A stretch of 33,290 nucleotides of DNA from Frankiaceae bacterium (GTDB taxonomy: Bacteria; Actinomycetota; Actinomycetes; JAVEEJ01), in contig JAVEEJ010000323.1 in assembly GCA_030840515.1 (NCBI GenBank), positions 1 through 33,290 of the forward strand, written 5' to 3'. The translations under genes were made by a program, and so were the position numbers. This document shows, piece after piece, positions 14,794-32,568 of the stretch. The first letter of the stretch is position 1; every line of letters begins with the position of its first letter. The notes beneath the pieces are model-generated. The model saw only the letters and a program-made list of their open reading frames with translations, made no database searches and was not told the DNA's origin.

Positions 14794-16952
14794 CTCTTGA
14801 CCGAGGCCCGCTTCTTGGCGGCGCCGTTCTTGCTCGGGCTGGTCCTCGCGGATGTGGACTTGGCCCGTCCGTTGCTCGACACCGCAGCGCGGGCGCGGGT
14901 GCCCGATCCGTTGCGGGCCGCCTCGACGCTGCGCAGGAGTGGCGCGAGCGCCTCCTCGAGGACGGTGTCCTCCAGGGTCTCCTCCTCTTCCAGGCGCGCG
15001 GTCAGGTCGTCGAGCTCGCGACGGTGGGCGCGCAGGATGCGCGTCGCCTCAACCTGCGCGTCCTCGACCAGGGTGCGGATCTCTGCCTCGACTGCCTGCC
15101 GCGTCTCCGGGGACAGCTCAGCGAGCGGGGTCTCGTCGCCGAGGAAGCCCTCGCCGCCCTTGGCCATGTAGCGCACCATCCCGAGCGCGTCGCTCATGCC
15201 GTAGCGCGCCACCATGTCGCGCGCCAGGTCGGTCGCGTGCTCCACGTCCTGCTCGGCGCCGGTCGACCCCTCGCCGAAGATCAGCTGCTCGGCGGCGACG
15301 CCTCCGAGTGTGGCGACGAGCTGACCACGCAGCTCGGTGCGCGTCAGCAGCGACGCATCACGGTCGCCGAACGTGGCGGCCGCGATGGTGCGGCCGCGAG
15401 CCAGCACCGACACCCGGTGCAGGTCCTCGGTGCGGCCGAGCGCGGCAGCCACGACCACGTGGCCGATCTCGTGGTAGGCCGCGCGACGGCGCTCCTCCTC
15501 GGTCAGCACCCGGCCACGGCGCTGCGGGCCGTCGAGGACGCGCTGCACGGCCTCGTCGAGCTCCGGGACGTGAACGACGGACTTGCCGCGCCTGATGGTG
15601 AGCAGCGTGGCCTCGTTGACGACGTTCGCCAGGTCGGCGCCGGTGAACCCTGGGGTCTTGCGGGCGATCTTGGCGAAGTCGACCTCGGGAGCGATCGGCT
15701 TGCCGACCGCGTGGATCTTGATGATGCGCTCGCGACCGACGGCGTCCGGCCGGTCGATCGTGATGTGCCGGTCGAAGCGGCCGGGACGCATCAGGGCGGG
15801 GTCGAGGATGTCGGGGCGGTTGGTTGCACCCATGACGACGATCCCGCTCGAGGCGTCGAAGCCGTCGATCTCGACGAGGAGCTGGTTGAGCGTCTGCTCG
15901 CGCTCGTCCGAGCCACCACCGCCACCGCCCGCGCCGCGCTTGCGGCCGGCGGCGTCGAGCTCGTCGATGAACACGATCGCCGGCGCGACGGCGCGCACAC
16001 GGCGGAACAGGTCACGGACGCGGGCCGCGCCGACGCCGACGAGCGACTCGACGAACTCGGCACCGGCAACGGAGAAGAACGGCACTCCGGCCTCGCCTGC
16101 GACGGCCTTGGCGAGCAGCGTCTTGCCGGTCCCGGGAGGACCGAACAGCAGCACGCCCTTCGGCGGCGCGGCACCGAGTCGCGTGTACTTCTCCGGATCG
16201 CGCAGGTAGTCCCGAACTTCCTTGAGCTCCTCCACCGCCTCGTCGGCGCCGCCGACGTCGTTGAAGGTCACACCGGTGCCGCCCGTCTCGCTGTCGGCGA
16301 TGGCACCGAAGGAGACCACCTCACCGATCGCGCCGCCGCCGCTGCCCTTGGCCGTGAACAGCAGGCCGAACAACGTGGCGAGGATGAGGATGGGAAGCAG
16401 GAACTCAGAGACGATCCTGACGTTCTTCTTCGCCACCTGCTGATCGACGGTGACGCTGGCGCCGCTGTTCTGCAGCGCGTTGATCAGGTCCTTGGTGATG
16501 GTGCCGTTGTCCGGCAGGGCGACCCAGAACTTGCCGCTGCCTGACGGGACGTCGGTGAGCACGCTGGGCGCGGGCGTCGGGACCGCACTCGGCTTGGGCA
16601 CGGGCTTGCCCGAGGCGGCAGGGGCCGGCACGACGGGGGCGGGTGCGGCCGCCTCGGTGTAGGTCGCCTGGACCCGGGAGTCCTCGGCGAGCACGGTGGC
16701 GGTGGTGATCCGGCCGTCGGCAGCGAGGGCCGCGACCTGGTCGAGGGAGAGCTTGGTTCCCTCGGTGTGTGGGGCGAGGTAGCGCAGCGAGAGTCCGAAG
16801 GTCAGGAAGAGCAGCGCCAGGATGCCGGCGAGGATGGCGGGCAGGATCCGGCGCTTGGCCTTGGTGGCCACCCGGTGTCGGCGGCGCTTCTCGAGGAACG
16901 CGAGCACGCGCTTGATGGGGCTCGCCGAGCTCTCGGGGGTCTCGCTGGGCAC
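14790..16952 (-). CDS. ftsH: FtsH-family membrane AAA+ zinc metalloprotease (divergent paralog)
   Basis: Two N-terminal TMs, [29 protein letters not shown], Walker [39 protein letters not shown] zinc motif, TGAEQD third ligand. RBS GAGGAGG before the GTG. Confidence 0.93.
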
Positions 16953-17063
16953 GGGGGGTCCTCCTCGCCGGGGTCACCGGCTCACGGGTAGTGCGGGGGG
17001 TCACACAGGATTACTGCCGCGACGCCGGAGGCGTAACGCGACGGGGGGCCTACCTCTCATTAT

Positions 17064-17089
17064 TACGACGCGGCGCACGAGAGTCCTGC
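17064..17089 (-). promoter_or_regulatory. Putative sigmaH(Spo0H)-like promoter of the ftsH/integrin-like operon
   Basis: Minus strand reads GCAGGA-ctctcgtgcgccgc(14)-GTCGTA. The same motif occurs upstream of three other genes in the window. Confidence 0.55.
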
Positions 17090-17281
17090 CGGTGTCACAT
17101 ACCGGCCGCCCGGCGCCCCTCAACTGTAGGCGGGTCTCGCGCCTGCGTCAGGTCCGCGCCGATAACGATCCCGCCGCTGGCGCTTCAGCACCGATCCCGC
17201 CGTACTCGCCTCATTGATGATCTTGGACAAGCGCACCCTCGACCTGCCGTCCGCCCGGTGCCTTCTCCATGATCACCGCGG

Positions 17282-18622
17282 TCAGAGCAGCGGCAGATGC
17301 CGGTCCACCTCGAAGGGGGTCACCTGCTTGCGGTACTCCTCCCACTCCGCGCGCTTGTTGCGCAAGAAGAAGTCGAACACGTGCTCCCCCAGCGTCTCCG
17401 CGACCAGCTCGGAGCGCTCCATCGCCGTGATCGCGTCGGCGAGCGAACCGGGCAGCGGCTCGATCCCCAAGGCTCGCCGCTCGGCGTCCGTCAACGCCCA
17501 CACGTCGTCCTCGGCGCCCTCGGGCAGCTCGTAGCCCTCCTCGATGCCCTTGAGACCGGCGGCGAGGAGTACGGCGAACGCGAGGTAGGGGTTGCATGCG
17601 CTGTCCGGGGAGCGGACCTCGATCCGGGTCGACTGGCCCTTGGCCGGCTTGTACATCGGCACCCGGACCATGGCCGAGCGGTTGTTGTGACCCCAGCAGA
17701 CGTAGGACGGTGCCTCGCCCCCACCCCAGAGCCGCTTGTAGCTGTTCACCCACTGGTTGGTCACGGCCGTCATCTCCGGCGCGTGGGTGAGCAGGCCCGC
17801 GATGAACGCCCGGCCCGTCTTGGACAGCTGGTAGGCCGACCCGGCCTCGTAGAAGGCGTTGGTGTCGCCCTCGAACAGGGACAGGTGGGTGTGCATCGCC
17901 GAGCCCGGGTGCTCTGCGAAGGGCTTGGGCATGAACGTCGCGTAGACGCCCGCTCCCTGCGCGACCTCCTTCATGACCAGCCGGAAGGTCATGAGGTTGT
18001 CGGCTGTGGTGAGCGCGTCGGCGTAGCGCAGGTCGATCTCCTGCTGCCCCGGGCCGACCTCGTGGTGGCTGAACTCGACGCTGATCCCCATCGCCTCGAG
18101 CGTGGTGATGGCCTGCCGTCGGAAGTCGTGTGCCACCGCATGGGGGCTGTGGTCGAAGTAGCCACCGCGGTCGATCGGCTTCGGGACGTCGCCCGGGCCT
18201 TCCGGCGCCCGGTCGAGCAGGAAGAACTCGACCTCGGGGGGGGTGTAGAAGGTGAAGCCGAGGTCAGCCGCCTTGCCCAGGGCGCGCTTGAGCACCGCTC
18301 GCGGGTCCGCCCAGGACGGCGTCCCGTCAGGCATGAGGATGTCGCAGAACATGCGCGCCGTGCCTGGGTGCTCGCCACGCCAAGGGAGCAGCTGGAACGT
18401 GGCCGGGTCGGGACGTGCGAGCATGTCGCTCTCGCTGACCCGGGCAAACCCCTCGATAGCGGACCCGTCGAAGCCGATCCCCTCGAGAAACGCACCCTCG
18501 AGCTCGGCCGGGGCGACCGCGACGGACTTGAGGAAGCCCAGCACGTCGGGGAACCACAACCGAACAAAACGGATGTCGCGCTCCTCGATGGTGCGGAGCA
18601 CGAACTCCTGCTGCTTGTCCAC
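17282..18622 (-). CDS. glnA: Glutamine synthetase family protein, actinobacterial GlnA2 (GSI-alpha) type. Start GTG 18622
   Basis: MDKQQEFVLRTIEERDIRFVRLWF..., GIGFDGSAIEGF, SHHEVGPGQQEI, ATFMPKP...GSAMHTHLSL, NSYKRL..GGEAP, NRSAMVRVP, RIEVRSPDSACNPY. Linked to glnE as is usual for glnA2. Confidence 0.93.
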   Translation of the reverse strand: MDKQQEFVLRTIEERDIRFVRLWFPDVLGFLKSVAVAPAELEGAFLEGIGFDGSAIEGFARVSESDMLARPDPATFQLLPWRGEHPGTARMFCDILMPDGTPSWADPRAVLKRALGKAADLGFTFYTPPEVEFFLLDRAPEGPGDVPKPIDRGGYFDHSPHAVAHDFRRQAITTLEAMGISVEFSHHEVGPGQQEIDLRYADALTTADNLMTFRLVMKEVAQGAGVYATFMPKPFAEHPGSAMHTHLSLFEGDTNAFYEAGSAYQLSKTGRAFIAGLLTHAPEMTAVTNQWVNSYKRLWGGGEAPSYVCWGHNNRSAMVRVPMYKPAKGQSTRIEVRSPDSACNPYLAFAVLLAAGLKGIEEGYELPEGAEDDVWALTDAERRALGIEPLPGSLADAITAMERSELVAETLGEHVFDFFLRNKRAEWEEYRKQVTPFEVDRHLPLL

Positions 18623-18644
18623 GTGTCCATCCTCAGGGGGGCGT

Positions 18645-18660
18645 GTTTCCAGCACGTTAC
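18645..18660 (-). promoter_or_regulatory. GlnR box upstream of glnA
   Basis: Minus strand GTAAC-gtgctg-GAAAC matches the actinobacterial GlnR consensus GTnAC-n6-GAAAC, 22 nt upstream of the start codon. Confidence 0.75.
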
Positions 18661-18706
18661 GAGGCCGACGCCGCAACGCGCGGCAGCTCAAGTCGTTAGG
18701 GGTGTT

Positions 18707-20326
18707 ATGTCAGGGGGGCCGAGTCGCCGTGCCGTGCTCTCGGGCGCGGCCGTGGGGATCGCGGCGGCCGGTCTGCGCGGCAGCGCGTCGGCCTCGGCGG
18801 CGGGTGGCAGCGACCGAGACGGGGACGAGTACGACGGGACTGGGCTCGACCCGACCCTCGCGGCACCGCCCCTCCCCGTCCCGGCGAACTCCGCGCTGCA
18901 CCTGCTGCGCCGGGTCACCCATGGACCGGCGCCGGTCGACTGGGAGGCGCTGACTCAGGCCGGCGGTCTCACTGAGTACCTCGACGCCCAGCTCGCCGAC
19001 ATGCCCGACGTGATCACCGACGCGCAGGTGCGCACCCGCTTCCCCTACGCCGAGCTGCCGCCCGCCGCGGTGCACGCCGCACTCGGACCCAACTGGGATC
19101 CCACGGCGATGCGACAGGTCGCGCTGGCGCACACGTTCCGGCAGCTCGTCTCGTCACGGCAGCTCTATGAGCAGGTCGTCGACGTCTTCTACAACCGGCT
19201 CAACGTTCCGGCGAACGGCGAGGACGGGCCGTGGTCGCTGCCGGACTACTACGCGCAGGTGATCCGCAAGCACGCTTATGGCAAGTACGCCGACATGGTG
19301 CTGGCTTCCGCGACGCACGGCGCGATGCTCGACTACCTGTCGGCCTCGGAGTCCACCAAGCACAACCCGAACGAGAACCTGGGCCGGGAGCTGCTCGAGC
19401 TGCACACCGTGGGACTCGGCGCGCGCTACACGGAGACCGACGTCAAGAAGGCGGCGCTTGCGCTGACCGGGCTGACCACCGCCGCCGACGGGTCGATGAC
19501 GTACTACGCGGCATCGCACTACGTCGGCGGGCTGCGCGTGCTGCGCTGGGCCCACCCGAACAAGACCGCTGCCGGTGGGCAGGCCGTCGTCGCGAGCCTC
19601 GTCAACTACCTCACCCGGCACTCCGCGTGCGCGCGGCGGGTCGCGTCGGCCCTGGCCACCCGATTCGTCTGCGACAAGCCCCCGCGTGACCTGCTGGACG
19701 CGATGCAGCACGCCTACCTGGCCAACGACACGGCCATCGTGCCCACGCTTCGCGCGATGTTCGCGCACAAGGCCTTCGAGCAGTGGAAGGGCCGCAAGCT
19801 GCGTCGGCCGCATCAGCAGGCGCTGGCCGCCGCCCGCTGCCTGAGCGTGGGCGCCGACCCGGCGCAGCCCACCGGGACCGACGGCACGTCCAGGCTCTGG
19901 TTCAGCATGGGCTCGCTCGGCGACGCGCCACTGACCCATGCGGCGCCCGACGGCCACCCCGACCTCGCGATGTGGTGGCTGTCGACCTCGAGCCGGCTGG
20001 CCGCCCCGCGGTGGTCGGTCCTGGCGACCGGTGGCTGGGGCGCCGGCCTGTCCAACCCCGACGCCGCAGTGCTTCGGCCGACGGACTCTTACGCGACGCA
20101 GGGTGCCGTGTGGTCGCCGGCCACGTCCGTGACACCGCGCCAGCTGGTCCAGGCCTGCGCCCGCCGGATGCTCGGCCAGTCCCTGCCTTCGGCCCAGGTC
20201 GACATCGTGGTCAAGGGCGTGGGGCTGTCGCCCACTGCCCCACCCGCGCTGTTGATCAGCTACGACGCCGCGCTGGAGGCGATCTACGCCCTGCTCGCCT
20301 CGCACCCGCAGCACACGGTGCGCTGA
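18707..20326 (+). CDS. DUF1800-family protein with Tat signal. Start ATG 18707
   Basis: MSGGPSRRAVLSGAAVGIAAAG Tat signal. HLLRRVTHG, RQLYEQVVDVFYNRLNV, AMLDYL...NPNENLGRELLELHTVG and YTETDVKKAALALTG hallmarks. Confidence 0.88.
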   Translation: MSGGPSRRAVLSGAAVGIAAAGLRGSASASAAGGSDRDGDEYDGTGLDPTLAAPPLPVPANSALHLLRRVTHGPAPVDWEALTQAGGLTEYLDAQLADMPDVITDAQVRTRFPYAELPPAAVHAALGPNWDPTAMRQVALAHTFRQLVSSRQLYEQVVDVFYNRLNVPANGEDGPWSLPDYYAQVIRKHAYGKYADMVLASATHGAMLDYLSASESTKHNPNENLGRELLELHTVGLGARYTETDVKKAALALTGLTTAADGSMTYYAASHYVGGLRVLRWAHPNKTAAGGQAVVASLVNYLTRHSACARRVASALATRFVCDKPPRDLLDAMQHAYLANDTAIVPTLRAMFAHKAFEQWKGRKLRRPHQQALAAARCLSVGADPAQPTGTDGTSRLWFSMGSLGDAPLTHAAPDGHPDLAMWWLSTSSRLAAPRWSVLATGGWGAGLSNPDAAVLRPTDSYATQGAVWSPATSVTPRQLVQACARRMLGQSLPSAQVDIVVKGVGLSPTAPPALLISYDAALEAIYALLASHPQHTVR

Positions 20327-20372
20327 CATGACGGACATGGTTGACATGACGGACATAGCTGAGATCACCGAC
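20325..20372 (+). repeat. Degenerate 18-bp tandem repeat at the DUF1800/DUF1501 junction
   Basis: gacatgacggacatggtt / gacatgacggacatagct / gagatcaccgac, encoding MTDMVD-MTDIAE-ITD. Confidence 0.7.
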
Positions 20373-21725
20373 GCGGGGCTGAACGACGACCTGGTTGACC
20401 TGACCCCGGAGCCCGCCGAAGGCACGTTCCTGCCCCGGGACGACGACACACCGGCACCCGTGGTGACCGCTGGCTCCGATGTGCCGGCACTGTCAGCCAT
20501 CGCGGCGGGCAACGGCCTTGACCGGCGCAACGTGCTCGGGGGCCTCGCGGCGGCGGCCGCGGCCGGCCTGGTGTCGTCGGCACTGCCCGGCCGGCTCGCG
20601 TTCGCCGGGACCCCGGGTGACTCGATCGTCGTGTTGTTCCTCCGCGGCGCGTACGACGGGATGTCGTTGCTCGCGCCCATCGGCGACCCCCACTACAAGA
20701 AGGCTCGTCCGCGACTGGCGCTGCCAGCCTCGATCGGTCTGCCGGCAGACCGGATGTTCGCCTGGAACCCGCAGGCGGTTCAGCTGCACAACCTCTTTCA
20801 GCGGGGACAGCTCGCGCCGATTGTCGGTGTCGCCTCCCCGGCCGCCACCCGCTCGCACTTCGAGGCGATGGAGCGGATGGAGTCGTGCTCCTATGCCGCC
20901 AGCCCGCAGCGCAGCGGGTGGCTCGACCGCTACGCCGAAGGGATCGGCGCCCGGCAGGTGTTCTCCTCGGTCGCGCTCGGCGGTCTCGTCCCCCGCTCGA
21001 TGACGGGAGCAGCGCCGGAGCTGACGATGCGCAGCCTTGACGCGTTCGACGTCTCGGTCGTGGGGCAGCGCAAGCGGTTCCTCAACGCGGTGCGCGGACT
21101 GCAGCACGCCAGTCGCGGCCCTGCCGCCAACGCGATGCTCGCGGGCCTCGCCGCGGTCGACCGCGTCGACCCGCTCAAGGGACGCCGCTCGGTCGGCTAC
21201 CCCGACACCTCTCTGGGCCGTGCGCTGCACGATGTCGCGACCCTGGTGCGCGCCAACCTCGGACTGCGAGTCGCGACGGTCGACGCCGGCGGCTGGGACA
21301 TGCACGTGGGGCTCGGTAACAGCGCCGGGAACAACGGGGGCAGCTTCGGGCGTCAGGCCGCCGACCTGTCGCTGTCGATCGGCGCCTTCGTCAAGGACCT
21401 GGGCGCGGCATGGCAGCGCACCACGCTGGTGGTGATGAGCGAGTTCGGACGACGGGTGGCGGAGAACGGCAGCGGCGGCCTGGACCACGGGCACGGGAAC
21501 ATGTGGCTGGTCGCCGGCGGCCGGATCCGCGGCGGCAAGGTCTACGGGCGTTGGCCCGGCCTGGCGCCGAGCCGGTTGGATGACGGTGACCTCGCGGGCC
21601 GCGTCGACCACCGGTCGGTGCTGGCCGAGGTGATCTCTCGGCGCGGCGGTGCGTCAGCCCGCACAGTTGGGGCCGCGCTTCCTGGGGCTCCGTCCACGCG
21701 GTTGGGCTTCACCGACCCTCGGTAG
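20328..21725 (+). CDS. DUF1501-family protein with Tat signal
   Basis: LDRRNVLGG Tat motif, VVLFLRGAYDGMSLLAP, TRSHFEAM, GGWDMH, SEFGRRVAENGSGGLDHGHG. Follows DUF1800 as usual. Exact start is uncertain. Confidence 0.88.
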   Translation: MTDMVDMTDIAEITDAGLNDDLVDLTPEPAEGTFLPRDDDTPAPVVTAGSDVPALSAIAAGNGLDRRNVLGGLAAAAAAGLVSSALPGRLAFAGTPGDSIVVLFLRGAYDGMSLLAPIGDPHYKKARPRLALPASIGLPADRMFAWNPQAVQLHNLFQRGQLAPIVGVASPAATRSHFEAMERMESCSYAASPQRSGWLDRYAEGIGARQVFSSVALGGLVPRSMTGAAPELTMRSLDAFDVSVVGQRKRFLNAVRGLQHASRGPAANAMLAGLAAVDRVDPLKGRRSVGYPDTSLGRALHDVATLVRANLGLRVATVDAGGWDMHVGLGNSAGNNGGSFGRQAADLSLSIGAFVKDLGAAWQRTTLVVMSEFGRRVAENGSGGLDHGHGNMWLVAGGRIRGGKVYGRWPGLAPSRLDDGDLAGRVDHRSVLAEVISRRGGASARTVGAALPGAPSTRLGFTDPR

Positions 21726-21736
21726 ATCTGCGTGCG

Positions 21737-22600
21737 TCAGATCGTGAAGGTCGTCTCGGGCTGAGTCTGCTTCTCCGAGGCCTGGCTGATGACGCGAAGC
21801 CTGTAGTCACCCGCGGGCAGCGGTCGGCCTCGCGCGTCCACGTCGGTCCAGGATGCGGTCCACTGCCAGCAGTGGTCGGTCTCGGCAACAAGTTCGTGCG
21901 GCTGATGGTCCGCCGGGTGGTCCGCAGACCAGCGCCAGACGACTTCCGTGCCTCTCATGACCAGCAGTTCGACCTCGCGGCTAGTGCTGAAGATGAGCTT
22001 GCTGCCCGAGGTGCCGTCGCGGCAGAGTTCGTCGGTGAGTTCATGACCATGCGCGGTCTTCTTGACGATCGCGCTGTGACACCAGTTGACCGTGGAGTGG
22101 GTGTTGTCCCCCACGTCCGATGACGCGCCCTGGCAGAACGACGTACCGCTCCCCAAGGGTGCTGGCCGGGCAAAGTAGTTCCGAACCAAGTCCGGTGTCC
22201 GGTACCCGTCGACCGCGGGTCCCGGTCCCGTCGTGGCTGCCGGCTCCGCTGTCGCCTCGGGTCCAGCCGCGGCATTGGGAGACGAGGTCGCGCCCGGCTG
22301 CTGTCCGGACGCGCTGTCATTAGTGGCTCCAGGAACGGGAGCACGCGACGGCACATCTGACGCGGACGCTGAAGGCGCCGGTGTCGCACCGTCCGGGTGG
22401 CCCGTGACCCGCAGACTGTCCTGGCCGCCCAGGGAAGAGGAGCCGATGATGGCGAGTACGACGGCGACCGCACCGGCGCCCGTCGTACTCGCAGCCGTCG
22501 CCTTCAACCGCCGACGACGCCGGCCCGCCCGCCGTGCCTCGGCGAACCCACCGTCCGGTGGGCTGAGCTCGGTGAAGGGACGGCGCGGGAGGTCGCTCAT
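21737..22600 (-). CDS. Putative membrane anti-sigma factor with a C-terminal BsuPI-like Ig domain. Start ATG 22600
   Basis: Short cytoplasmic part ending ARRAGRRRRR, one TM, P/S/A/T linker, then FSTSREVELLV..VVWRWS..WTASW...GRPLPAGDYRL. ATGA overlap with the sigma stop. Confidence 0.7.
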   Translation of the reverse strand: MSDLPRRPFTELSPPDGGFAEARRAGRRRRRLKATAASTTGAGAVAVVLAIIGSSSLGGQDSLRVTGHPDGATPAPSASASDVPSRAPVPGATNDSASGQQPGATSSPNAAAGPEATAEPAATTGPGPAVDGYRTPDLVRNYFARPAPLGSGTSFCQGASSDVGDNTHSTVNWCHSAIVKKTAHGHELTDELCRDGTSGSKLIFSTSREVELLVMRGTEVVWRWSADHPADHQPHELVAETDHCWQWTASWTDVDARGRPLPAGDYRLRVISQASEKQTQPETTFTI

Positions 22601-23127
22601 CGCGCGTCCCCCATCTCTCCGGCCAGCACGAGGCGGGCCTCGTGAAGGCGACGCTTGACCGTGCCGACCGGGCGGTGGGTCAGGCGAGCGACCTCTTCGA
22701 CCGGCAGGTCGGCGTAGTAGTGCAGCAGCACCGCCTCTCGGAGCCGCTCCGGGAGTCGCTGCACCAAGTCGCGCAGCCATGGGTCGTGGGCCGGCGCGGT
22801 CGCGACGATGGCTCGCGCCGACTCGCGCGCGAGCACCCGGTCCTTGGTGGTCTGCCGCCAGTGGTCGCGGGCGATGTTGGTGGCGACGAAGAACAGCCAG
22901 GCCCGCGGGTCACAGACACTGCGCCAGCGTGCGAGCAGCCGGGTGAACGCCTCCTGGGCGATGTCCACGGCTGCTCCCTGGTCTCCGACGATGGCGAGCG
23001 CGTAGCCGGACAAGGGTCCGAAGTGCTCGGCGTACAACGCCTCGAACTGCTCCGCCTGGGACGGGGCGTCGACGGACTGAGCGGGAGGCGGCACGGGGTG
23101 TCTCAGTGCCCCCACCTCCGTCGTCAC
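22597..23127 (-). CDS. ECF (sigma70-family) RNA polymerase sigma factor
   Basis: Region 2 FEALYAEH...AVDIAQEAFTRL...AWLFFVATNIARDHWR. Region 4 LPERLREAVLLHYYADLPVEEVA...GTVKRRLHEAR. RBS AGGAGG. Confidence 0.93.
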   Translation of the reverse strand: MTTEVGALRHPVPPPAQSVDAPSQAEQFEALYAEHFGPLSGYALAIVGDQGAAVDIAQEAFTRLLARWRSVCDPRAWLFFVATNIARDHWRQTTKDRVLARESARAIVATAPAHDPWLRDLVQRLPERLREAVLLHYYADLPVEEVARLTHRPVGTVKRRLHEARLVLAGEMGDAR

Positions 23128-23158
23128 TCCTGTCCTCCTGATCAGTGTGCGTCGGGTC

Positions 23159-23218
23159 GTAGACGGAGCAGACGGCGGGAAGGTTCGGCCGAACCTGAGC
23201 GGGTTTCCACCCGTCTAC
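23159..23218. promoter_or_regulatory. Back-to-back divergent ECF-type promoters GAACC-N16-CGTCTAC
   Basis: Plus strand: GAACC 23191-23195, 16 nt, CGTCTAC 23212-23218. Minus strand: mirror copy ending at 23159. Central 16-bp palindrome AGGTTCGGCCGAACCT at 23181-23196. Confidence 0.75.
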
Positions 23219-23250
23219 GGCCTGTCAGCCCGCCCAGCCAGGAGGAACGC

Positions 23251-23829
23251 ATGAACGCCCGGACCGTCACCGCACTCCTCTGCGCCGCCGCGCTCGGCGC
23301 GCTCGCCCCGACAGCGACGGCCGCCCCTGTCGAGCAGCGCCGGATCGCCACGACCGAGCTCCACCTGGGTCTGGCCGGCGGACGCACCCTCGACGTCCAG
23401 CTGCGGTTGCTCACCGGGCCCAGCGGGAGCACGCTACGGGTCGAGACCGCGCGCTGCGACGCCAACGGCTGCGACGCCGCATCGGACTACGCCGGGCCAG
23501 TGAGCGGCGCTTCCATCTCGGGCACCGATGCGCGGGCGACCCTGCACTCCGTCGTCGGAGGGCTGGCGCTCTCCCTCACGTGGACACCGTCGGGCGAGCA
23601 GGCGCACGAGCTCGGCGGCCTGCGGGGCAGCGGCAACGGCGGCGAGGACGACCTGAGCGTCTACTCCGGCAGCCCCGCGCTGGTGGCCGCCCAGGTCGAG
23701 TCTGTGGCGTGCCACCTGACCGGTGTCGTCGGTGACGAGGTGCACGTCTCCGACTCCAGCGGTCCTGCCGCGGGTGTGCGCCCGCTCACCGCGCTGAACC
23801 TGCCTCGCCGGGCGACTGTCATCTGCTGA
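23251..23829 (+). CDS. Secreted hypothetical protein (192 aa, beta-rich, Cys-containing). Start ATG 23251
   Basis: RBS GGAGGA, signal peptide MNARTVTALLCAAALGALAPTATA, CDANGC loop. Divergent from the ECF sigma gene. Confidence 0.75.
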   Translation: MNARTVTALLCAAALGALAPTATAAPVEQRRIATTELHLGLAGGRTLDVQLRLLTGPSGSTLRVETARCDANGCDAASDYAGPVSGASISGTDARATLHSVVGGLALSLTWTPSGEQAHELGGLRGSGNGGEDDLSVYSGSPALVAAQVESVACHLTGVVGDEVHVSDSSGPAAGVRPLTALNLPRRATVIC

Positions 23830-23857
23830 GTCGCCGTACTCGTCCCTGGGTCGCCGG

Positions 23858-25231
23858 CTACAGCTCGATCGCGACGGCCGGGCTGGAGTGCCCGTCAGTC
23901 TTGGTCGCGGGGACCGTGTCGAGCTTCTTGTAGTCGGGCGTGGTCGAGTCGTCGAAGGACGCCGCGATCTTGCCGTCGGGGAAGACGGTCACGCTGCAGA
24001 AGTCGAAGCGGTTGCTGGTCGTGCCCACGCCGATGCCGGTGTTGATGTCGCCCTTGCCCAGGTAGTAGGTGCGCAGCAGCCGCGGCTGCGCGCGCTTGAC
24101 GTCGACCACGAAGACCATGTCCTGGCCGCGGCCCGCTGAGTCGTCTGCGCGCACCGAGATCGCCGCGATCCCGGCCTTGCCGTTGACCTTCACGTCGTGC
24201 AGCGGGTCGCTGCCGCCCTCGAGCCTGCGGCCCTCGGGCACGGTGATGTCGATGCTCTTCCACGCCTTCCCACCATCGGTGGACAGGGCAAGCGAGAGGC
24301 TCTGCGCGCTCGGAACAACCTCGGTGAGCCAGCCGCGGGAGTCCTGGCGCACGGTGCCGCGGGGGATCCACGGCAAGCGGACGCAGCCCCACTTGGCCGT
24401 GGTCTGGTCCAGCCGCGCGGCCACGCAGGGGAAGTCGTCGTCGCCGTTCTTGAACAGCAGCACCCCGCCCGCGTTGAGCGGCAAGGTGTAGGTGCCGGGG
24501 TTGGGCTGCCAGAAGTCAGCGTCTGGGTTCTTCACGACGCGCGGGCGGAACAGCGGGAACTCGCTGCCCGTCGCCTCCTGGCTCGGGATCGACGGAGTCG
24601 AGTAGTCCAGGCCGTCACCGCTGATCACCTCGAGCGACTTGGTGACCCCGCCGCCGCGGATGATGGTGGCGAACGGGTACTTCGTGCCACCGATCGTGAA
24701 CGGGCCCTTGGCGTAGGTGACCCACTCGCGGTCGAAGAACGGCGACTTCAGCGGGACCTCGGACACCTCCCACGCCGCCGAGCTCTTGGTGTAGCGGAAG
24801 CCCTGCAGATGGTCGCCGGTGTAGGCATCCCACCCGGCGCCGTACACGTTGCCGCCCGGTCCGGCGACGAGCGCGCCCTCGCCGTTGTAGAGCGGCGTGG
24901 TGGGCGTGACCTTCCACCAGGACTTGCCGCGGTCGTCGGAGTAGTAGGGCACGACCCCGCCGAACTCGAGCAGCCGTCCGGTCGCGGTCGCGGCGACGTA
25001 GGTCTCGCAGCAGTCCCCTCCGACGTCGCTCCAGCGCCAGGTCTTGGAGCCGATCTTGCGGCCGCGGGCGTCGAAGACCGGGTAGCTGGCGACGTGCACA
25101 CCGGCGGCGTACTTCTGCACGCTCGCCGGAGTGACCGCCGCCGGGCCGGCGGGGGTAGGCCCGGCCACCGCGGCCGAGACGGCGAGAGCGAGGGCGGCGA
25201 CGGAAAGGACAACGGGGGGCGTTCGGCGCAT
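23858..25231 (-). CDS. Secreted Asp-box (sialidase-like) beta-propeller protein with a GGDCCE motif, paralog 1
   Basis: Signal peptide, Asp-boxes SDDRGKSW and STDGGKAW, colinear with the neighbouring gene. Start 25231 is preferred over 25237 because it matches the promoter spacing of paralog 2. Confidence 0.78.
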   Translation of the reverse strand: MRRTPPVVLSVAALALAVSAAVAGPTPAGPAAVTPASVQKYAAGVHVASYPVFDARGRKIGSKTWRWSDVGGDCCETYVAATATGRLLEFGGVVPYYSDDRGKSWWKVTPTTPLYNGEGALVAGPGGNVYGAGWDAYTGDHLQGFRYTKSSAAWEVSEVPLKSPFFDREWVTYAKGPFTIGGTKYPFATIIRGGGVTKSLEVISGDGLDYSTPSIPSQEATGSEFPLFRPRVVKNPDADFWQPNPGTYTLPLNAGGVLLFKNGDDDFPCVAARLDQTTAKWGCVRLPWIPRGTVRQDSRGWLTEVVPSAQSLSLALSTDGGKAWKSIDITVPEGRRLEGGSDPLHDVKVNGKAGIAAISVRADDSAGRGQDMVFVVDVKRAQPRLLRTYYLGKGDINTGIGVGTTSNRFDFCSVTVFPDGKIAASFDDSTTPDYKKLDTVPATKTDGHSSPAVAIEL

Positions 25232-25240
25232 GGTCATGCG

Positions 25241-25267
25241 TTCGACGTCCGCGGCGCAGAGTCCTTC
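25241..25267 (-). promoter_or_regulatory. Putative sigmaH-like promoter of paralog 1
   Basis: GAAGGA-ctctgcgccgcggac(15)-GTCGAA, then 9 nt, then ATG. Confidence 0.6.
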
Positions 25268-25292
25268 CCGGACGAGTACGACGACCTAGCGG

Positions 25293-26684
25293 CTAGACCG
25301 CGATCGCCAGCTGCGGGGAGCCCTTGCCTGCCTTGTCGTCGAACGACGCCACCAGCTTGCCGTCCGGCAGGAAGGCGATCGTCATGTAGTCCATGCGGTC
25401 GCCGCTGGCCCCGCTCACCGCGTCGTTGGCGGTCACGAGGTTGCCGTCACCGACGAGGTCGGTCTCCACCAGCCTGGGCTTGCCCTTGCTCACGTCGATG
25501 AGGAAGACCATGTCCTGGCCTGGCTTGCCCTTCACCTTGTCGAAGCGCGTGATCAACGCCGCCTTGCCGAGCTTGCCGTTCACCTTCAGGTCATGCAGCG
25601 GGTTGCTGGTGTTGACGGCGTCGGACGTCGGCAGCCAGCCCTCGATGGTGCCGCCGACGGGGGACTTCACGGTGACGCCGGACCAGTGCCGGCCACCGTC
25701 GGTGGAGATCTCCACCCGCCAGCCCTTGCCGTCGGTCGACGGGTAGGCCTGCGTGAGCCAACCGCGCGAGTCTTGCCGCACGACGGTGCCGCGCAGACTG
25801 GCCGGGGCCTTGACGCAGTGCCAGGTGGCGTCCGACGTGCGCATGAGCGTGACCTCGCAGCCGGGCGCGTCGAGGTCATCGGCCTTGCGGTAGTGCAACG
25901 CGCCGCCGGCGTTGAGTGTGGTGGCGTGCGCCGCGGGAACGTCCTGGTTCCAGTCGGCGGTGGCGTCCTTCTTCACCGGCACGTAGTAGGTGGCCGACTC
26001 GGCGTTGTCGCCCGCGCTGTCGACCGGCGGGACCGTGAGCACGTCGTAGTGGAGCCCGTCAGCCGACAGGTACTCCACGTCCTTGCTCGGGTAGGCGCCG
26101 CGCACCAGGGTCGCGTAGGGCACGGTCTTGCCGCCGATGGTGATCGGCCCCTTCACGATCGAGACCCAGGGCCGGTCGAAGAACGGCCCGTGCAGCGGCG
26201 TGAAGGCGGTCTCGAACTTCTTCGTGGCGGCGGTGTACTTGTAGCCGGTCAGCACGTCGCCGCTGTAGGGGTCCCAAGTGATGCCGACGATGTCGCCGTT
26301 CGGGGCCACCGTCACCGCGCCCTCGCCGTTCGGCAGGACTCCTGGCGGCAGCGCGTAGGTGACCTGCTTCCAGGTCACCCCACGGTCATCGCTGAAGAAC
26401 AGGTAGGTGCCGCCGAACTCGTAGATGCGCCCGGCCTGCGTGGTGTGGCCGTACACCTCACAGCAGTCGCCGCCCGCGTCGGTCCGGCGCCAGCTCTTGG
26501 TCCCGATGCGCTTGCCCGCTGCGTTGTAGCGGTCCCAGGTCACGACCTCGTTGTGGGTCCGCACGCTCGTCACGACACCTGGCTGGGCGGGCACGTCGTT
26601 CGGGACGGGCGTGGTCGCGACCGCGACGCCGGCAAGAAGGGCGGCGGACGCCAGGAGCGGGAGGACGGTTCTGCGCAGCTGCAT
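25293..26684 (-). CDS. Secreted Asp-box beta-propeller protein with a GGDCCE motif, paralog 2. Start ATG 26684
   Basis: MQLRRTVLPLLASAALLAGVAVA signal peptide, SDDRGVTW, STDGGRHW. Shares NGEGA, WD.YxGD, PFFDR.WV, VRQDSRGWLT, LHD.KVNGK and GQDMVF with paralog 1. Confidence 0.8.
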   Translation of the reverse strand: MQLRRTVLPLLASAALLAGVAVATTPVPNDVPAQPGVVTSVRTHNEVVTWDRYNAAGKRIGTKSWRRTDAGGDCCEVYGHTTQAGRIYEFGGTYLFFSDDRGVTWKQVTYALPPGVLPNGEGAVTVAPNGDIVGITWDPYSGDVLTGYKYTAATKKFETAFTPLHGPFFDRPWVSIVKGPITIGGKTVPYATLVRGAYPSKDVEYLSADGLHYDVLTVPPVDSAGDNAESATYYVPVKKDATADWNQDVPAAHATTLNAGGALHYRKADDLDAPGCEVTLMRTSDATWHCVKAPASLRGTVVRQDSRGWLTQAYPSTDGKGWRVEISTDGGRHWSGVTVKSPVGGTIEGWLPTSDAVNTSNPLHDLKVNGKLGKAALITRFDKVKGKPGQDMVFLIDVSKGKPRLVETDLVGDGNLVTANDAVSGASGDRMDYMTIAFLPDGKLVASFDDKAGKGSPQLAIAV

Positions 26685-26693
26685 GGGGATCGC

Positions 26694-26719
26694 TTCGACA
26701 GCCGAGGGCGGAGTCCTGC
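26694..26719 (-). promoter_or_regulatory. Putative sigmaH-like promoter of paralog 2
   Basis: GCAGGA-ctccgccctcggct(14)-GTCGAA, then 9 nt, then ATG. Confidence 0.6.
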
Positions 26720-26747
26720 CGGCCGGCGCGCTCCGTAGGCTGGTGTT

Positions 26748-28502
26748 GTGCCTTCGCTTCGGCTCGCCCTGGCTCAGGTCAACGCGACGGTCGGCGACCT
26801 CGAGGGCAACGCGTCGCTGGTCCTGCGGTGGGCCGAGCACGCCCAGCAGCGCGGCGCCCACCTCGCCGTCTTCCCCGAGGGCGTCATCACCGGTTACCCG
26901 GCGGAGGACCTCGTGTTGCGGGAGTCCTTCGTCGCTGCCTCCATCGACACTGTCGTCCGGTTGGCGCAGCAGCTCGCCGCCGCCGGGCTCGGAGAGCTGC
27001 CGGTGGTGCTCGGGTACGTCGACAGCGCCCCCCGCGGCCGCCCCTTCAACGCGGCCGCCGTGCTGCACCGCGGCGGGGTGGTCACCACCTACGCGAAGCA
27101 CCACCTCCCGAACTACGGCGTCTTCGACGAAGCGCGCTACTTCACCCCTGGCGAGCGGTTCCCGGTGGTGCGGGTGCGCGGCATCGACGTCGCACTGACG
27201 ATCTGCGAAGACCTGTGGCAGGACGGGGGGCCCATCGCGGCTGCGCGCACGGCCGGCGTCGGCCTGGTGCTGACCATCAACGGCTCGCCGTACGAGCGCG
27301 ACAAGGACGACTTCCGGCTCGCGCTGGCCCAGCGCCGCGCGGCCGAGGCGGGCGCGACCTTGGCCTACGTCAACCTCGTAGGCGGTCAGGACGAGCTGGT
27401 CTTCGACGGCGACTCCCTCGTCGTCGCGCCCGACGGAACCCTGCTGGCCCGAGCCCCGCAGTTCGAGGAGGGCCTGCTCGTCGCGGACCTCGAGCTGCCC
27501 GCGGCGTCGGACGACCGCTGGGGTGCCGTGCCGGTCGGTGACGGTGGCCAGATGGTGGTGGAGCGGGTGACGGTCTCGGCAGAGCCGTTGCCCGAGTGGG
27601 CGCTGCTTCCCAGCGGGATAGCGGCGCGCCTGGACGACACAGCGGAGGTGTGGCGCGCACTGGTCCTCGGCACCCGTGACTACGTCCGCAAGAACGGCTT
27701 CAGCTCAGTGGTGCTCGGTCTGTCCGGCGGGATCGACTCCGCAGTGGTCGCCGTACTCGCAGCCGACGCACTCGGCCCCAGCGCGGTGCACGCCGTGGGG
27801 ATGCCGTCGCGGCACTCGAGTCCGGGGTCCCTCACCGATGCCGAGGAGCTGACCCACCGGGTCGGGGTCAACTGGGAGGTGATCCCGATCGACCCCGTCG
27901 TGCGCGGGTTCGAGGGCGCGGTCGAGCTGCACGGGCTGGCCGCCGAGAACCTGCAGGCGCGGGTACGGGGCACCCTGCTGATGGCGTTGTCCAACGAGCG
28001 CGGGCACCTGGTCCTCGCCACCGGCAACAAGAGCGAGCTCGCGACCGGCTACTCGACGCTCTACGGGGACGCGGTCGGTGGCTACGCGCCGATCAAGGAC
28101 GTGCCCAAGACGGACGTGTGGGCGCTCGCCCGGTGGCGCAACGCCTGGGCAAGCGAGCGAGGCGAGACACCGCCGATCCCGGAGGCTTCCATCAGCAAGC
28201 CTCCCTCCGCGGAGCTGCGCCCCGGACAGCAGGACAGTGACTCGCTGCCGCCCTATGAGGCGCTCGACGCAGTGCTGGACGACTACGTCGAACGCGACCT
28301 CGGTCGGGCCGCGCTGCTGCGCGCCGGTCACGACGAGGGGCTGGTGGACCGGGTGATGCGGCTGGTCGACCACGCCGAGTACAAGCGCCGGCAGTACCCA
28401 CCGGGCCCGAAGGTCTCGTCGCGCAACTTCGGCCGCGACCGCCGACTTCCCATCACGTCGCGCTGGCGCGAGGGGCCCGCCGCTGACCCCGCCCAGGGGT
28501 AG
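26748..28502 (+). CDS. nadE: Glutamine-dependent NAD+ synthetase
   Basis: Nitrilase domain VFPEG / YAKHHLPNYGVFDEARYF / TICEDLW. Synthetase domain GLSGGIDS, ENLQARVRG, TGNKSE..GYSTLYGD, KPPSAEL, AEYKRRQ. TAGGCT -10 at 26736-26741 lies 6 nt before the GTG. Confidence 0.97.
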   Translation: MPSLRLALAQVNATVGDLEGNASLVLRWAEHAQQRGAHLAVFPEGVITGYPAEDLVLRESFVAASIDTVVRLAQQLAAAGLGELPVVLGYVDSAPRGRPFNAAAVLHRGGVVTTYAKHHLPNYGVFDEARYFTPGERFPVVRVRGIDVALTICEDLWQDGGPIAAARTAGVGLVLTINGSPYERDKDDFRLALAQRRAAEAGATLAYVNLVGGQDELVFDGDSLVVAPDGTLLARAPQFEEGLLVADLELPAASDDRWGAVPVGDGGQMVVERVTVSAEPLPEWALLPSGIAARLDDTAEVWRALVLGTRDYVRKNGFSSVVLGLSGGIDSAVVAVLAADALGPSAVHAVGMPSRHSSPGSLTDAEELTHRVGVNWEVIPIDPVVRGFEGAVELHGLAAENLQARVRGTLLMALSNERGHLVLATGNKSELATGYSTLYGDAVGGYAPIKDVPKTDVWALARWRNAWASERGETPPIPEASISKPPSAELRPGQQDSDSLPPYEALDAVLDDYVERDLGRAALLRAGHDEGLVDRVMRLVDHAEYKRRQYPPGPKVSSRNFGRDRRLPITSRWREGPAADPAQG

Positions 28503-28583
28503 CCGGCGCCGCCCCGCCCGCGTCGTGTCACGATGGTGCTGCCCGGGGACGCCGTGTGGTGCCTCGAGGCGTGGGAGGCAGCC

Positions 28584-29423
28584 ATGGCTACCGAGGCCAT
28601 CAGCTTGTACGGCGGGTCCGGGAACGGCCGCCGCGTCACGGTCCGCGACATCGCCGCCGCCAAAGAGCGAGGCGAGCGTTGGCCGATGCTCACCGCCTAC
28701 GACGCCCTCACCGCGGGGCTCTTCGACGAGGCCGGGATCCCGGTGCTGCTCGTCGGCGACTCCGCGGCGATGGTGGTCTACGGCTACGACACCACCTTGC
28801 CGGTCCGGGTCGATGACCTGATCCCGCTCGTCGCGGCGGTGGTGCGCGGGTCGAAGCGGGCCATGGTGGTGGCCGACCTGCCGTTCGGCAGCTATCAGGC
28901 CAGCGCCGCGCAGGCGCTCGAGACCGGGGCGCGCTTCCTCAAGGAGGGCGGCGCGCACGCGGTCAAGCTCGAAGGCGGCGCCCGCGTGCTGCCCCAGGTC
29001 GACGCACTGGTGGCCGCCGGGGTGCCGGTGATGGGTCACCTGGGGCTGACGCCGCAGAGCGTGAACGCGATCGGCGGCTACCGCGTGCAAGGCCGAGGTG
29101 GGGCGGACGAGCAGCTGCTCGCCGACGCGAAGGCGCTGGAGGCCGCGGGCGCCTTCTCCCTGGTGCTCGAGGCCGTGCCCGCCGAGCTCGCCGAGCGCAT
29201 CACGGCGTCACTGGCCATCCCGACCATCGGGATCGGCGCGGGCAACGCGTGCGACGGGCAGGTGCTCGTCTGGCAGGACCTCGCCGGCCTGACGCCGTCC
29301 CCCGGGCCGAAGTTCGTCAAGCGCTACGCCGATCTGCGCGGCGTCCTCACCTCCGCCGTGCAGGAGTTCGCGGCCGAGGTCGCGGACGGGAGCTATCCGG
29401 GTCCGGAGCACAGCTACCACTGA
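28584..29423 (+). CDS. panB: 3-methyl-2-oxobutanoate hydroxymethyltransferase. Start ATG 28584
   Basis: [63 protein letters not shown]. Confidence 0.96.
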
Positions 29424-29440
29424 CCGCTGCGCCACCTCGC

Positions 29441-30115
29441 TCAGATGTCGGTGACCCGGATGCCGGCATGCGCCTTGTAGCGGCGGTTCACCGAGATCAG
29501 GTTCGCGGTGAGCGCCTCGACCTGCCGGCAGTTGCGCAGCCGCCCGGCGTACACCCCGCGCATCCCTGGGATCCCCGCGACGATGTCTTGGACAAGGTCG
29601 GTGGCGGCACGGTCATCGCCGAGCACGAGGACATCGGTGTCGAGTACGGCGATCTCCGGGTCGAGCAGCAACACGGCCGAGACGTGGTGGAACGCCCCCA
29701 CCACGGTCGAGTCCGGCAGCGCAGCGGCGGCCTCCTGCGCCGCCGACCCCTCGGGAACCGCCAGCGCGAAGGCTCCCTGGGCGTCGAAGCCGAGCGGGTT
29801 CACGCAGTCGACGACGACCTTGCCCGCCAGCTCGGCAGCCAGCGACTCGAGCAGTGCCCGGTGCCCGTCATAGGGAACGGCGACGACGACGAGGTCCGCC
29901 GCCGCGGCGTCGGCGTTGCCCGCGCCCGTGACCCGCTCCAGACCGAGATCGGCCGCCGCCGTGACAGCCCGGCCCGGGTCCCGAGAGCCGAGCACCACGC
30001 TGTGGCCTGCGAGGGCGAGGCGCCGGGCCAAGCCTCGGCCCTGCTCACCCGTGCCACCGAGAACCCCGATGCTCATGAGTCGCTGGGCGGAGGGGTCGCC
30101 GGGCTCTACGGTCAT
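29441..30115 (-). CDS. npdG: NADPH-dependent F420 reductase. Start ATG 30115
   Basis: IGVLGGTGEQGRGLA, LGSRD, VVAVPY, VDCVNPL, VVGAFHHVSA, VEALTANLISVNRRYK. CATGAT -10 lies 6 nt before the ATG. Confidence 0.92.
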   Translation of the reverse strand: MTVEPGDPSAQRLMSIGVLGGTGEQGRGLARRLALAGHSVVLGSRDPGRAVTAAADLGLERVTGAGNADAAAADLVVVAVPYDGHRALLESLAAELAGKVVVDCVNPLGFDAQGAFALAVPEGSAAQEAAAALPDSTVVGAFHHVSAVLLLDPEIAVLDTDVLVLGDDRAATDLVQDIVAGIPGMRGVYAGRLRNCRQVEALTANLISVNRRYKAHAGIRVTDI

Positions 30116-30208
30116 GCCGCGATCATGCCCAGGGCTGTCGAGGGTTGTGGCGAGGGGTCCGGGGAACGGTGCCCCCCAGATGACCGCTCCGGAACTGTGT
30201 CCGTCTTG

Positions 30209-30234
30209 GGAGGATTCCCAGGGGGGGCGGCGAA
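30209..30234 (+). promoter_or_regulatory. Putative sigmaH-like promoter of the 30295 gene
   Basis: GGAGGA-ttcccagggggggc(14)-GGCGAA. Confidence 0.5.
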
Positions 30235-30294
30235 CCCAGGGGCGATAAGCAGGACCGAGGTAGCCAGGCACGAGCGGCGGCAGGAGGTGGCGGC

Positions 30295-31170
30295 ATGGAC
30301 GAGCAGTCCGAGCGCGGCCCCCTCGAGCCCACGCCCGGCGGCGTCGAGCGGCTCCTCGCAGAGCTCGCTGACCTGCGGCTTCTCCTCGACAGCGACCTGA
30401 CGATCGCGGCCGCCGCCCTCGACGCGGACGCCCCGCAGATGGCCTCTCAGGTCCTCGACGACGAGCACGAGCGGCTCAACTCCCTGCAGGCCCGGATCCT
30501 GCGCGGCGTCACCCCGGAGCCTGCGCGAGTGGCACCGGCACCGATCGAGCTGCCCCAGCCGCGATCGCGGCGCTTGGCCCGCCTGCCCGGCGGTGCCGCT
30601 GCTGCCCTGGCCGCGGCCGCCGTGGCAGCCGCCGTACTCGGGGCCTCCATGGTCCCGAGCATGCACAGCAGCCATCCGGCCCTGGCCTCGGACGTGGCGA
30701 CCGCAACGGACAGCTATGACGCCTTCAGTCGCATCGCCACCAGCAAGTCCGGCGACGCGGCCGACGTCCAGGCCGCCGCGGCCGCGCTGCACGCCTCGCT
30801 CCAGCCCCTGATCGACGCGGCCGACAGCAGTCCGGAGAGCGCTCAGCGGGCCCTCGAGCTGCTGCAGGCAGAGCAGCTGCTCCTGCTGCAGTCCAAGCCG
30901 GCCGGGGCCAACGCGATCCTGCGTGAGGCACACCGGCTGGTCCTGCGGCTGCGCAAGCAGGCCCCTTCGGTGGTCCCGCCCGCGGCGACCAAGCCGCTGG
31001 CGACGAGCAGCCCCAAGTCGACCAGCAGCGCCAAGCCGGTGGCGAAGCCCTCGCCCTCGCCGACCACGTCGCCTACCCCTTCGCACAAGCCGAGCCCCAA
31101 GCCCAGCCCCTCCGGGTCACCCTCCTCGAGCCCCTCACCGAGCTCGACAGGCATCATCCCCGGGCTCTAA
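30295..31170 (+). CDS. Hypothetical single-pass membrane protein with a Pro/Ser/Thr-rich C-terminal tail
   Basis: RBS AGGAGG. Acidic helical N-domain, RSRRLAR + hydrophobic Ala-rich segment, helical outer domain, KPSPSPTTSPTPS tail. Confidence 0.75.
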   Translation: MDEQSERGPLEPTPGGVERLLAELADLRLLLDSDLTIAAAALDADAPQMASQVLDDEHERLNSLQARILRGVTPEPARVAPAPIELPQPRSRRLARLPGGAAAALAAAAVAAAVLGASMVPSMHSSHPALASDVATATDSYDAFSRIATSKSGDAADVQAAAAALHASLQPLIDAADSSPESAQRALELLQAEQLLLLQSKPAGANAILREAHRLVLRLRKQAPSVVPPAATKPLATSSPKSTSSAKPVAKPSPSPTTSPTPSHKPSPKPSPSGSPSSSPSPSSTGIIPGL

Positions 31171-31199
31171 GAGCCCGCGCGCCGTTCGAAGCGGTGCGC
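31161..31199 (+). terminator. Possible hairpins at the end of the 30295 gene
   Basis: CGGGCTC-taa-GAGCCCG followed by GCGCGCCGTT-cga-AGCGGTGCGC. No U-tract. Confidence 0.3.
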
Positions 31200-31221
31200 C
31201 CACCTCGGGCACGATGACCGC

Positions 31222-31815
31222 ATGGATCGCTCCAGCGCGCAGGCGTTGCGCGAGCTCCTCGCCTCCACGGCGCTGGTGGACCGCACGTTGTCCTTCGGCC
31301 GGGCCCTTCGGCGTACCCGGGTCGGTCGCTCCCCCGGTGGGCTGCTCGTCGTCGGCACCGCCGAGGAAGAGCCGTGGCACTTCACCGCCCACCTTCAGGA
31401 CGAGGCTGAGTGGGCCGGAGCTCCGGAGCTGACGCCGACGCTCATTCGCTGGTCACCACCAGACGATGCGCCCGCACACTTGGCTGTCGACCTGTCGCGT
31501 CTCGAGCAGGCGAAGCGCGGGGAGTCACTGCTCGTCGTTGCGCCGGGGAGAGCCACCGATCCGCTTCTCGAACGGGTCGATGACGCGCGCCACCGCGGTG
31601 CCAGCGTCTTCGCCGTCGCGAGCGCCGACCGCGAGTTGGAGGCGCTGGCCGATGAGGCCCTCGTCATGGAAGACCAGACCGTCGCGAAGTCCGTCGACTT
31701 CGACGCGGTCACGCACCTGATCTCCCTGGCAACCGGCGAAGCGCTGCCCGCTCGCGGCGGCGTGCGTCCGAGGTTGGCGCGGCTTCTCGATGTGTTGGCG
31801 GGTCCGCGCGACTGA
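31222..31815 (+). CDS. Conserved actinobacterial hypothetical protein, SIS-like fold suspected
   Basis: GGLLVVGTAEEEPWHFTAHL, SLLVVAP...LLERVDDARHRGASVFAV. CACGAT -10 lies 6 nt before the ATG. Confidence 0.7.
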   Translation: MDRSSAQALRELLASTALVDRTLSFGRALRRTRVGRSPGGLLVVGTAEEEPWHFTAHLQDEAEWAGAPELTPTLIRWSPPDDAPAHLAVDLSRLEQAKRGESLLVVAPGRATDPLLERVDDARHRGASVFAVASADRELEALADEALVMEDQTVAKSVDFDAVTHLISLATGEALPARGGVRPRLARLLDVLAGPRD

Positions 31816-32433: not shown

Positions 32434-32568
32434 ACATGCATCTTGCCCGGCGCCCACTTCGCGACACGCATCGACGCAGCAGGCGTGATGCTGGTAACAG
32501 TGGGGCATTGGTGTCATCGTGATCACGCAAGCCGGTCGACCGACCGGTCGAATGGCCAGGAGGTAGCA

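Follow-up and report, generated by a model that had tools for sequence, protein, structure and literature searches.

Promoters read by the Firmicute sigma factor sigma-H (SigH, Spo0H) have the published consensus RNAGGAWWW / RNNGAATWW (PMC8510167), and in Clostridioides difficile the mapped SigH promoters of spo0A, ssuA and lplA carry AGGA and GTCGAA with 14–15 nt between them (counted by eye in Table 3 of PMC7438776). The three rows print 9–11 bases after GTCGAA, the row end being taken, by inference, as the start (PMC7438776). Here we analyze the 33,290-nt contig JAVEEJ010000323.1 of a Frankiaceae bacterium (assembly GCA_030840515.1), referred to in its full length as the window, in which four sites had been predicted from the sequence to be sigma-H-like promoters. 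Very probably, judging from sequence comparisons, the Spo0H-type SigH encoded by this genome reads the motif G(C/G)AGGA-N14-G(T/G)CGAA and switches on about 50 units of mostly predicted secreted proteins. The sigma family and the promoter type are known; the actinobacterial regulon is apparently undescribed, as the literature searched (mostly open-access articles in their main texts, including PMC3533761, PMC8090866 and PMC4255298) describes no regulon of a Spo0H-type factor in these bacteria.

The genome (G000, the window being its contig C237) is 2.68 Mb in size, 76% complete and 71% G+C; genomes compared with it are likewise labelled with G-numbers, and its relatives among them are related to it at class level at nearest. 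Our own codon-model calls, which are heuristic, gave 2778 genes. The four sites lie at the predicted coordinates, on the predicted strands and with the predicted spacings, and each is intergenic and faces the next gene (Table 1); site 3 is found within a 63-nt gap, divergent from nadE. Their motif has the features by which sigma-H promoters are recognized, a -35 AGGA and a -10 GNNGAA 14–15 nt apart, and shares the two-box geometry of Bacillus and C. difficile SigH promoters. Unlike in those organisms, no A/T run trails the boxes, which are G+C-shifted. The strict pattern of the original prediction has 4 matches in the window versus 0 in 300 dinucleotide-type resamplings; all 9 of its matches genome-wide, including 5 outside the window, are upstream-intergenic. 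No sigma-70 consensus promoter was found in 16800–31300.

Extending the search to the whole genome with an iterated matrix gave the consensus stated above and 52 upstream sites at ≥14 bits, so that the proposed four-locus regulon gives way to a much larger set. At ≥16 bits, 49 of 52 matches are upstream and in sense orientation, as are 4% of all positions, and 1 of 52 lies in other intergenic DNA. Because training of the iterated matrix is partly circular, two independent tests were run. With boxes taken from the four window sites only and the window excluded, a spacer of 14 nt places 25 of 27 matches upstream (base rate 4.1%), and the 13 other spacers within 8–21 nt place 5 of 101 there. When half of the contigs were used for training and the rest for testing, 42 of 45 matches were upstream. 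The enrichment upstream of genes that the prediction called for is therefore present, and at one exact spacer. Information is confined to the two boxes, (G/A)G(C/G)AGG(A/G)N(T/C) and (G/A)CG(T/G)CGAA, with a neutral spacer, unconserved flanks and a weak A peak 11–12 nt downstream of the motif; the ctc that had been counted as part of the motif after AGGA falls outside this consensus, at variable positions. Back-to-back divergent motif pairs occur at G000:C163 4686/4743 and G000:C181 1827/1930, each serving two secreted-type genes.

The alternative sigma factor postulated to be encoded outside the window was searched for and found as a single Spo0H-type sigH gene (G000:C61:13393-13971). Its product passes the cut-offs of NF006148 (293, cut-off 208), NF006145 (285, 212) and NF006147 (242, 212), is below that of NF006146, and has the SigH structure 3mzy as its PDB match. 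With a Bacillus SigH it shares 60% identity, the putative recognition helices being nearly unchanged; the segments FAELCITRQIITAIKTATR and VKSIDNALQR, which we take to be promoter-recognition regions 2.4 and 4.2, are identical in the Bacillus protein. Its closest relatives are from metagenome-assembled genomes labelled Mycobacteriales and Frankiaceae. The ECF-type (extracytoplasmic function) SigH of mycobacteria and corynebacteria and the SigB-type SigH of Streptomyces belong to different families and share only the name with it; TIGR02947 is not among its 25 best-matching families, and it scores only 36 bits against SigB/F/G. The gene sits behind cysS-rlmB, and rlmB is directly upstream of sigH in 26 of 28 loci of the class, the two exceptions being second copies; this resembles the cysS-nusG context in Firmicutes (PMC3364868). 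Autoregulation was considered and rejected, the motif preceding only 1 of 108 sigH loci, which is similar to C. difficile, where sigH is listed with a SigA promoter (PMC7438776).

We then compared the motif with the distribution of sigH, which is present in 25 of 300 class genomes and in 100 of 250 sampled Actinomycetota genomes (including the unpublished G311 and G355). Within the class, at least 4 matches to the strict pattern were found in 10 of 25 sigH-positive and 1 of 275 sigH-negative genomes. A looser pattern gave 303 matches at N14 versus 101 at the same-phase control spacer N17 in the 25 sigH-positive genomes, and 138 versus 119 in 25 chosen sigH-negative kin (114 versus 113 without G119). 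In other classes, at least 15 matches were found in 14 of 50 chosen sigH-positive genomes versus 0 of 60 sigH-negative ones; the latter include the unpublished G392 and G422, and for them the figures are raw counts at N14. In two sigH-negative genomes, G101 and G062, other genes stand behind rlmB and the motif shows no excess. Single families (f33 and f20) include genomes with sigH and many sites, others with sigH and few sites, and some, namely G101 and G062, that keep rlmB without sigH behind it and lack an excess, which looks as if the regulon shrinks before sigH is lost.

Genes behind the motif are mostly of the secreted type. By our own signal-peptide heuristic, 39 of 52 motif-bearing first genes are called secreted compared with 256 of 2424 others, and several of the heuristic misses have evident signal peptides if begun at the motif-proximal ATG. 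The same holds elsewhere, in a chosen subset of the sites listed: 27 of 40 downstream genes are called secreted in five sigH-positive genomes versus 0 of 20 in negative genomes, and 13 of 20 in three genomes of another class. Pfam matches among the 48 first genes outside the window comprise BNR and LVIVD propellers, S8, S15, M19 and M28 peptidases, esterases, penicillin amidase, PNGase A, CAP, phosphoesterase, WhiB, ECF sigma and GNAT; 22 of the 48 have no match. Paralogous targets include the two window propellers, two S8 proteins and about ten BNR propellers. Of the envelope regulon that had been proposed, the surface/secretome programme, with the integrin-like system in it, is supported by these mostly secreted targets; its content has to be revised, because it consists mainly of exported hydrolases and beta-propellers and not of envelope structure genes. 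Co-regulation of secretome loci by an alternative sigma factor is supported by sigH outside the window, by enrichment at the exact spacer, by tracking with sigH and by the secreted targets.

In size the regulon is similar to that of C. difficile (about 50 units here versus 41 SigH promoters there; PMC7438776). In contrast to Bacillus and C. difficile, the host is a 71% G+C actinomycete, and the targets are mostly secreted proteins rather than genes of sporulation, division or translation. No Spo0A above cut-off was found in the 76%-complete genome (best 67 bits versus 200), and Pfam revealed no sporulation family among the 52 first genes. Use of the family without sporulation is shared with the SigH-like/ComX factors of Lactobacillus sakei, Staphylococcus aureus and streptococci (PMC3364868). 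The factors of such non-sporulating Firmicutes activate competence genes and are highly diverged (PMC3364868), whereas the protein here is close to the Bacillus type; competence families were likewise not detected by Pfam among the 52 genes, first genes only being covered.

Distances from the motif to the start codon are bimodal, being 9–10 nt or at least 25 nt. Twelve genes have an in-frame ATG 9–10 nt past the motif; in every case a C stands before the ATG and the encoded N-terminus resembles a signal peptide. An SD-like (Shine-Dalgarno) word is present in 28 of 38 leadered genes. From this spacing, the 12 genes, about a quarter of the regulon, are likely to be leaderless. Both window propellers belong to this group, since the ATG reported 9 nt after GTCGAA is indeed there (25231 and 26684), with no SD in those 9 nt; at the 25267-25241 site a second in-frame ATG lies 3 nt past the motif, ahead of the point where transcription is predicted to start. 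In C. difficile, potentially leaderless genes number 15 in the whole genome (PMC7438776), in contrast to the roughly one quarter of targets that seem leaderless here.

Table 1. Predicted promoters and associated genes in the window (positions as in the window, strand of the feature)
Feature	Position	Strand	Details
Site 1, predicted sigma-H promoter	17064..17089	-	-35 GCAGGA, 14 nt, -10 GTCGTA; 21.5 bits; 111 nt before FtsH paralog
Site 2, predicted sigma-H promoter	25241..25267	-	GAAGGA, 15 nt, GTCGAA; 20.3 bits; ATG 9 nt downstream
Site 3, predicted sigma-H promoter	26694..26719	-	GCAGGA, 14 nt, GTCGAA; 21.5 bits; ATG 9 nt downstream
Site 4, predicted sigma-H promoter	30209..30234	+	GGAGGA, 14 nt, GGCGAA; 22.5 bits; 60 nt before ATG
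Propeller + integrin-beta-like VWA surface protein	12043..14793	-	PF00362 weak, below cut-off
FtsH paralog, first gene behind site 1	14790..16952	-	TIGR01241 648 bits, above cut-off; SD-like GAGGAGG before GTG
ECF sigma factor with downstream membrane protein	22597..23127	-	rejected as motif reader; absent from the original prediction
Secreted BNR-type beta-propeller copy 1, likely leaderless	23858..25231	-	42% identity with copy 2
Secreted BNR-type beta-propeller copy 2, likely leaderless	25293..26684	-	PF02012 weak
Single-pass membrane protein behind site 4	30295..31170	+	no Pfam family; helical conserved N-terminal part before membrane segment (alignment)

Several points weigh against the assignment of a secretome regulon to SigH. 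The protein scores 282.8 against TIGR02859, narrowly below the cut-off of 294.8, and both the signal-peptide calls and the gene calls are our own heuristics. The motif precedes 39 of 217 first-in-unit secreted genes and thus marks a subset of the secretome only. In 14 of 25 sigH-positive genomes of the class, and in 36 of 50 of other classes, the excess over the control spacer is below 10, and the P values of such cross-genome comparisons are overstated because related genomes are not independent. G119, in which no sigH was detected, has the motif at full strength (24 versus 6); rlmB is missing from it as well, so an assembly gap is likely. The genome also contains 31 sigma-70-family matches, of which only two ECFs were compared as rivals, leaving about 28 others.

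An ECF sigma factor, be it the one in the window, the one on contig C113 or another, is a decidedly unlikely reader of the motif, even though a 22-bit site precedes the C113 gene by 30 nt and autoregulation is frequent among ECFs. Most motif-rich genomes contain relatives of the window ECF, and G119 combines the motif with an undetected sigH. The two candidates are nonetheless rejected on their distribution across the 300 genomes, as far as a search that scored 11 candidates per genome, and may have missed some, can tell: a C113-type ECF was detected in 24 of the 300 genomes, with none among the 10 sigH-positive genomes that have at least 4 strict matches. Family f17, whose genomes show at most one strict match each, has window-type ECFs in 17 of its 20 members, and these ECFs were not found in the motif-carrying G122, G039 and G065. 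The window ECF has no site upstream (best score -1.4 bits), and agreement of the motif with the published sigma-H geometry also counts against an ECF reader. Upstream position and fixed spacing would equally suit a two-half-site operator bound by a DNA-binding regulator, as opposed to a core promoter. We regard this as very improbable, because the motif shows the symmetry neither of a palindrome nor of a direct repeat and keeps strictly to the sense orientation, and because 12 genes start exactly 9–10 nt behind it, the spacing to be expected of leaderless transcripts.

It is also unlikely, if somewhat less so, that SigH reads these promoters without governing a secretome programme, the targets being secreted-protein genes that were duplicated together with their promoters. 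Several targets are indeed paralogs, among them the window propellers at 42% identity, and the 4 sites in the window exceed the 0.65 expected there (P=0.004). Duplication is countered by the many unrelated families among the targets (S8, S15, M19, M28, penicillin amidase, PNGase A, CAP, phosphoesterase and FtsH), by the unconserved spacers and flanks, and by the recurrence of unrelated secreted targets in other families and in another class. That the sites match by chance or are left over from a repeat element has a negligible probability. The -10 box alone is common, GTCGAA and GGCGAA showing no enrichment between genes (6.6% versus 8.4%), but exact-spacer enrichment and the held-out test refute this reading; moreover, neither flanks nor spacer are conserved, Rfam has no match within the window, and around the sites there are only short two-copy repeats. 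The putative recognition by SigH draws on what is observed in the genomes: the motif with its fixed spacer and orientation, the place of sigH at cysS-rlmB, the types of downstream genes and the co-occurrence of motif and sigH.

SigH-RNA polymerase would bind AGGA as the -35 and G(T/G)CGAA as the -10 element. Transcription start follows a pyrimidine-purine rule, and initiation 10–12 nt after the last A would leave the two propeller mRNAs without leaders and give ftsH a leader of about 100 nt and the gene at 30295 one of about 50 nt. The predicted starts are 26684 and 25231, each the first base of a propeller ATG, about 17054-17052 for ftsH and about 30244-30246 for the 30295 gene. The predicted output comprises exported peptidases, esterases, amidases, BNR and LVIVD propellers and two propeller-VWA surface proteins. 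A WhiB-like regulator and an ECF sigma factor could form a second tier: the strong sites of a WhiB-family gene (G000:C278:3-257) and of the C113 ECF gene (G000:C113:2390-2917), which overlaps a membrane gene, suggest such an arrangement. SigH is a transition-phase factor, and on that analogy the trigger may be nutrient limitation. As its favoured function, at odds that we put at about even, the programme would serve nutrient scavenging and surface functions at entry into stationary phase, unlinked to endospores.

Of the targets in the window, the ftsH paralog and the VWA gene are likely co-transcribed, as the start of the latter overlaps the ftsH stop. The pair is inserted between glnA and glnE (window 9054-18622), and in four relatives, too, glnA stands before the paralog; read-through from site 1 into glnE, across a 40-nt gap, is possible. 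Among 12 N-terminally matching FtsH paralogs in relatives, a strong site precedes 3 and a weak site 2; the reference for these, and for the orthologs of the propeller and of the 30295 gene given below, is 1 in 300 random windows. The N-terminal part of the FtsH paralog finds at least six long matches in one relative, G183, and of the five scanned (L277, L280, L283, L285, L287) only one has the motif. A second propeller-VWA protein of this genome (G000:C234:2924-5617) stands behind a 17.5-bit motif, with a weak SIBA integrin-beta-like match and no ftsH in front. Homologs of propeller copy 1 were found in 4 of 5 sigH-positive genomes, with the motif upstream of all 4 and the ATG at 9 and 10 nt in two; Atlas neighbours of copy 2 are BNR/sialidase-like clusters with scores of 0.92-0.94.

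The membrane protein gene at 30295-31170 is the most conserved target found, with the motif upstream of 7 of 7 orthologs. It occurs in 7 of 8 sigH-positive class genomes versus 0 of 5 sigH-negative kin, and its protein family comprises 364 clusters at E≤0.001. It was not found in the sigH-positive genomes G171, G401 and G346 and hence is not a universal sigH partner. A PDB search with the protein gave no credible match, and the best Atlas score of 0.86 is a lead only. Membrane anti-sigma factors typically place a cytoplasmic helical domain, which binds the sigma factor, before the membrane segment, and our guess from the protein sequence is that this is a candidate feedback regulator or anti-sigma factor for SigH. 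A literature search on anti-sigma control of sigma-H found none, and we know of no such control for Firmicute sigma-H.

The ECF gene of the window and the single-pass membrane protein gene that follows it, the latter with a weak BsuPI-like C-terminal match, look like a separate sigma/anti-sigma module without a sigma-H site (21737-23829), next to a divergent small secreted-type gene (23251-23829). A DUF1800-DUF1501 gene pair at 18734-21725 has twin-arginine-like N-termini (by eye), also without a sigma-H site. At 32443-33288, in DNA of lower G+C and strong A skew, DUF1508 is fused to a long Lys/Ala-rich tail resembling histone H1.

In the unrooted SigH tree, all 34 rows of the class and the 25 Bacillota-like rows each fall on one side of a branch with 100/99 support, and no actinobacterial row is placed among the Bacillota-like rows. 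The tree leaves out 20 near-duplicate rows of 107, and four of the Bacillota-like rows bear other phylum labels. These four, labelled Caulobacteraceae, Calditrichales, Ignavibacteriales and Deltaproteobacteria (L139, L155, L162, L185), group with Bacillota and are possibly misbinned contigs. Recent transfer of sigH from Firmicutes is not supported by the tree, whose topology is consistent with vertical inheritance and loss. On a wider and doubtful view, sigma-H would be an ancient actinobacterial master switch of protein export, inherited vertically across the phylum, driving a leaderless-rich secretome and adhesin programme in several classes, lost from most cultured lineages along with this programme, and restrained in this class by a conserved, sigma-H-induced anti-sigma factor, the 30295-31170 product.

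Sigma-H has so far been studied as a sporulation and competence factor of Firmicutes, and control of a secretome suggests a third role, one that bears on the function of sigma-H before endospores. The integrin-like protein and its FtsH partner are placed by the motif in the proposed sigma-H programme. For the uncultured soil-type actinobacteria the motif would serve as a marker of co-regulated, mostly unannotated secreted enzymes, and a defined promoter with about 50 targets makes sigma-H control in actinobacteria testable.

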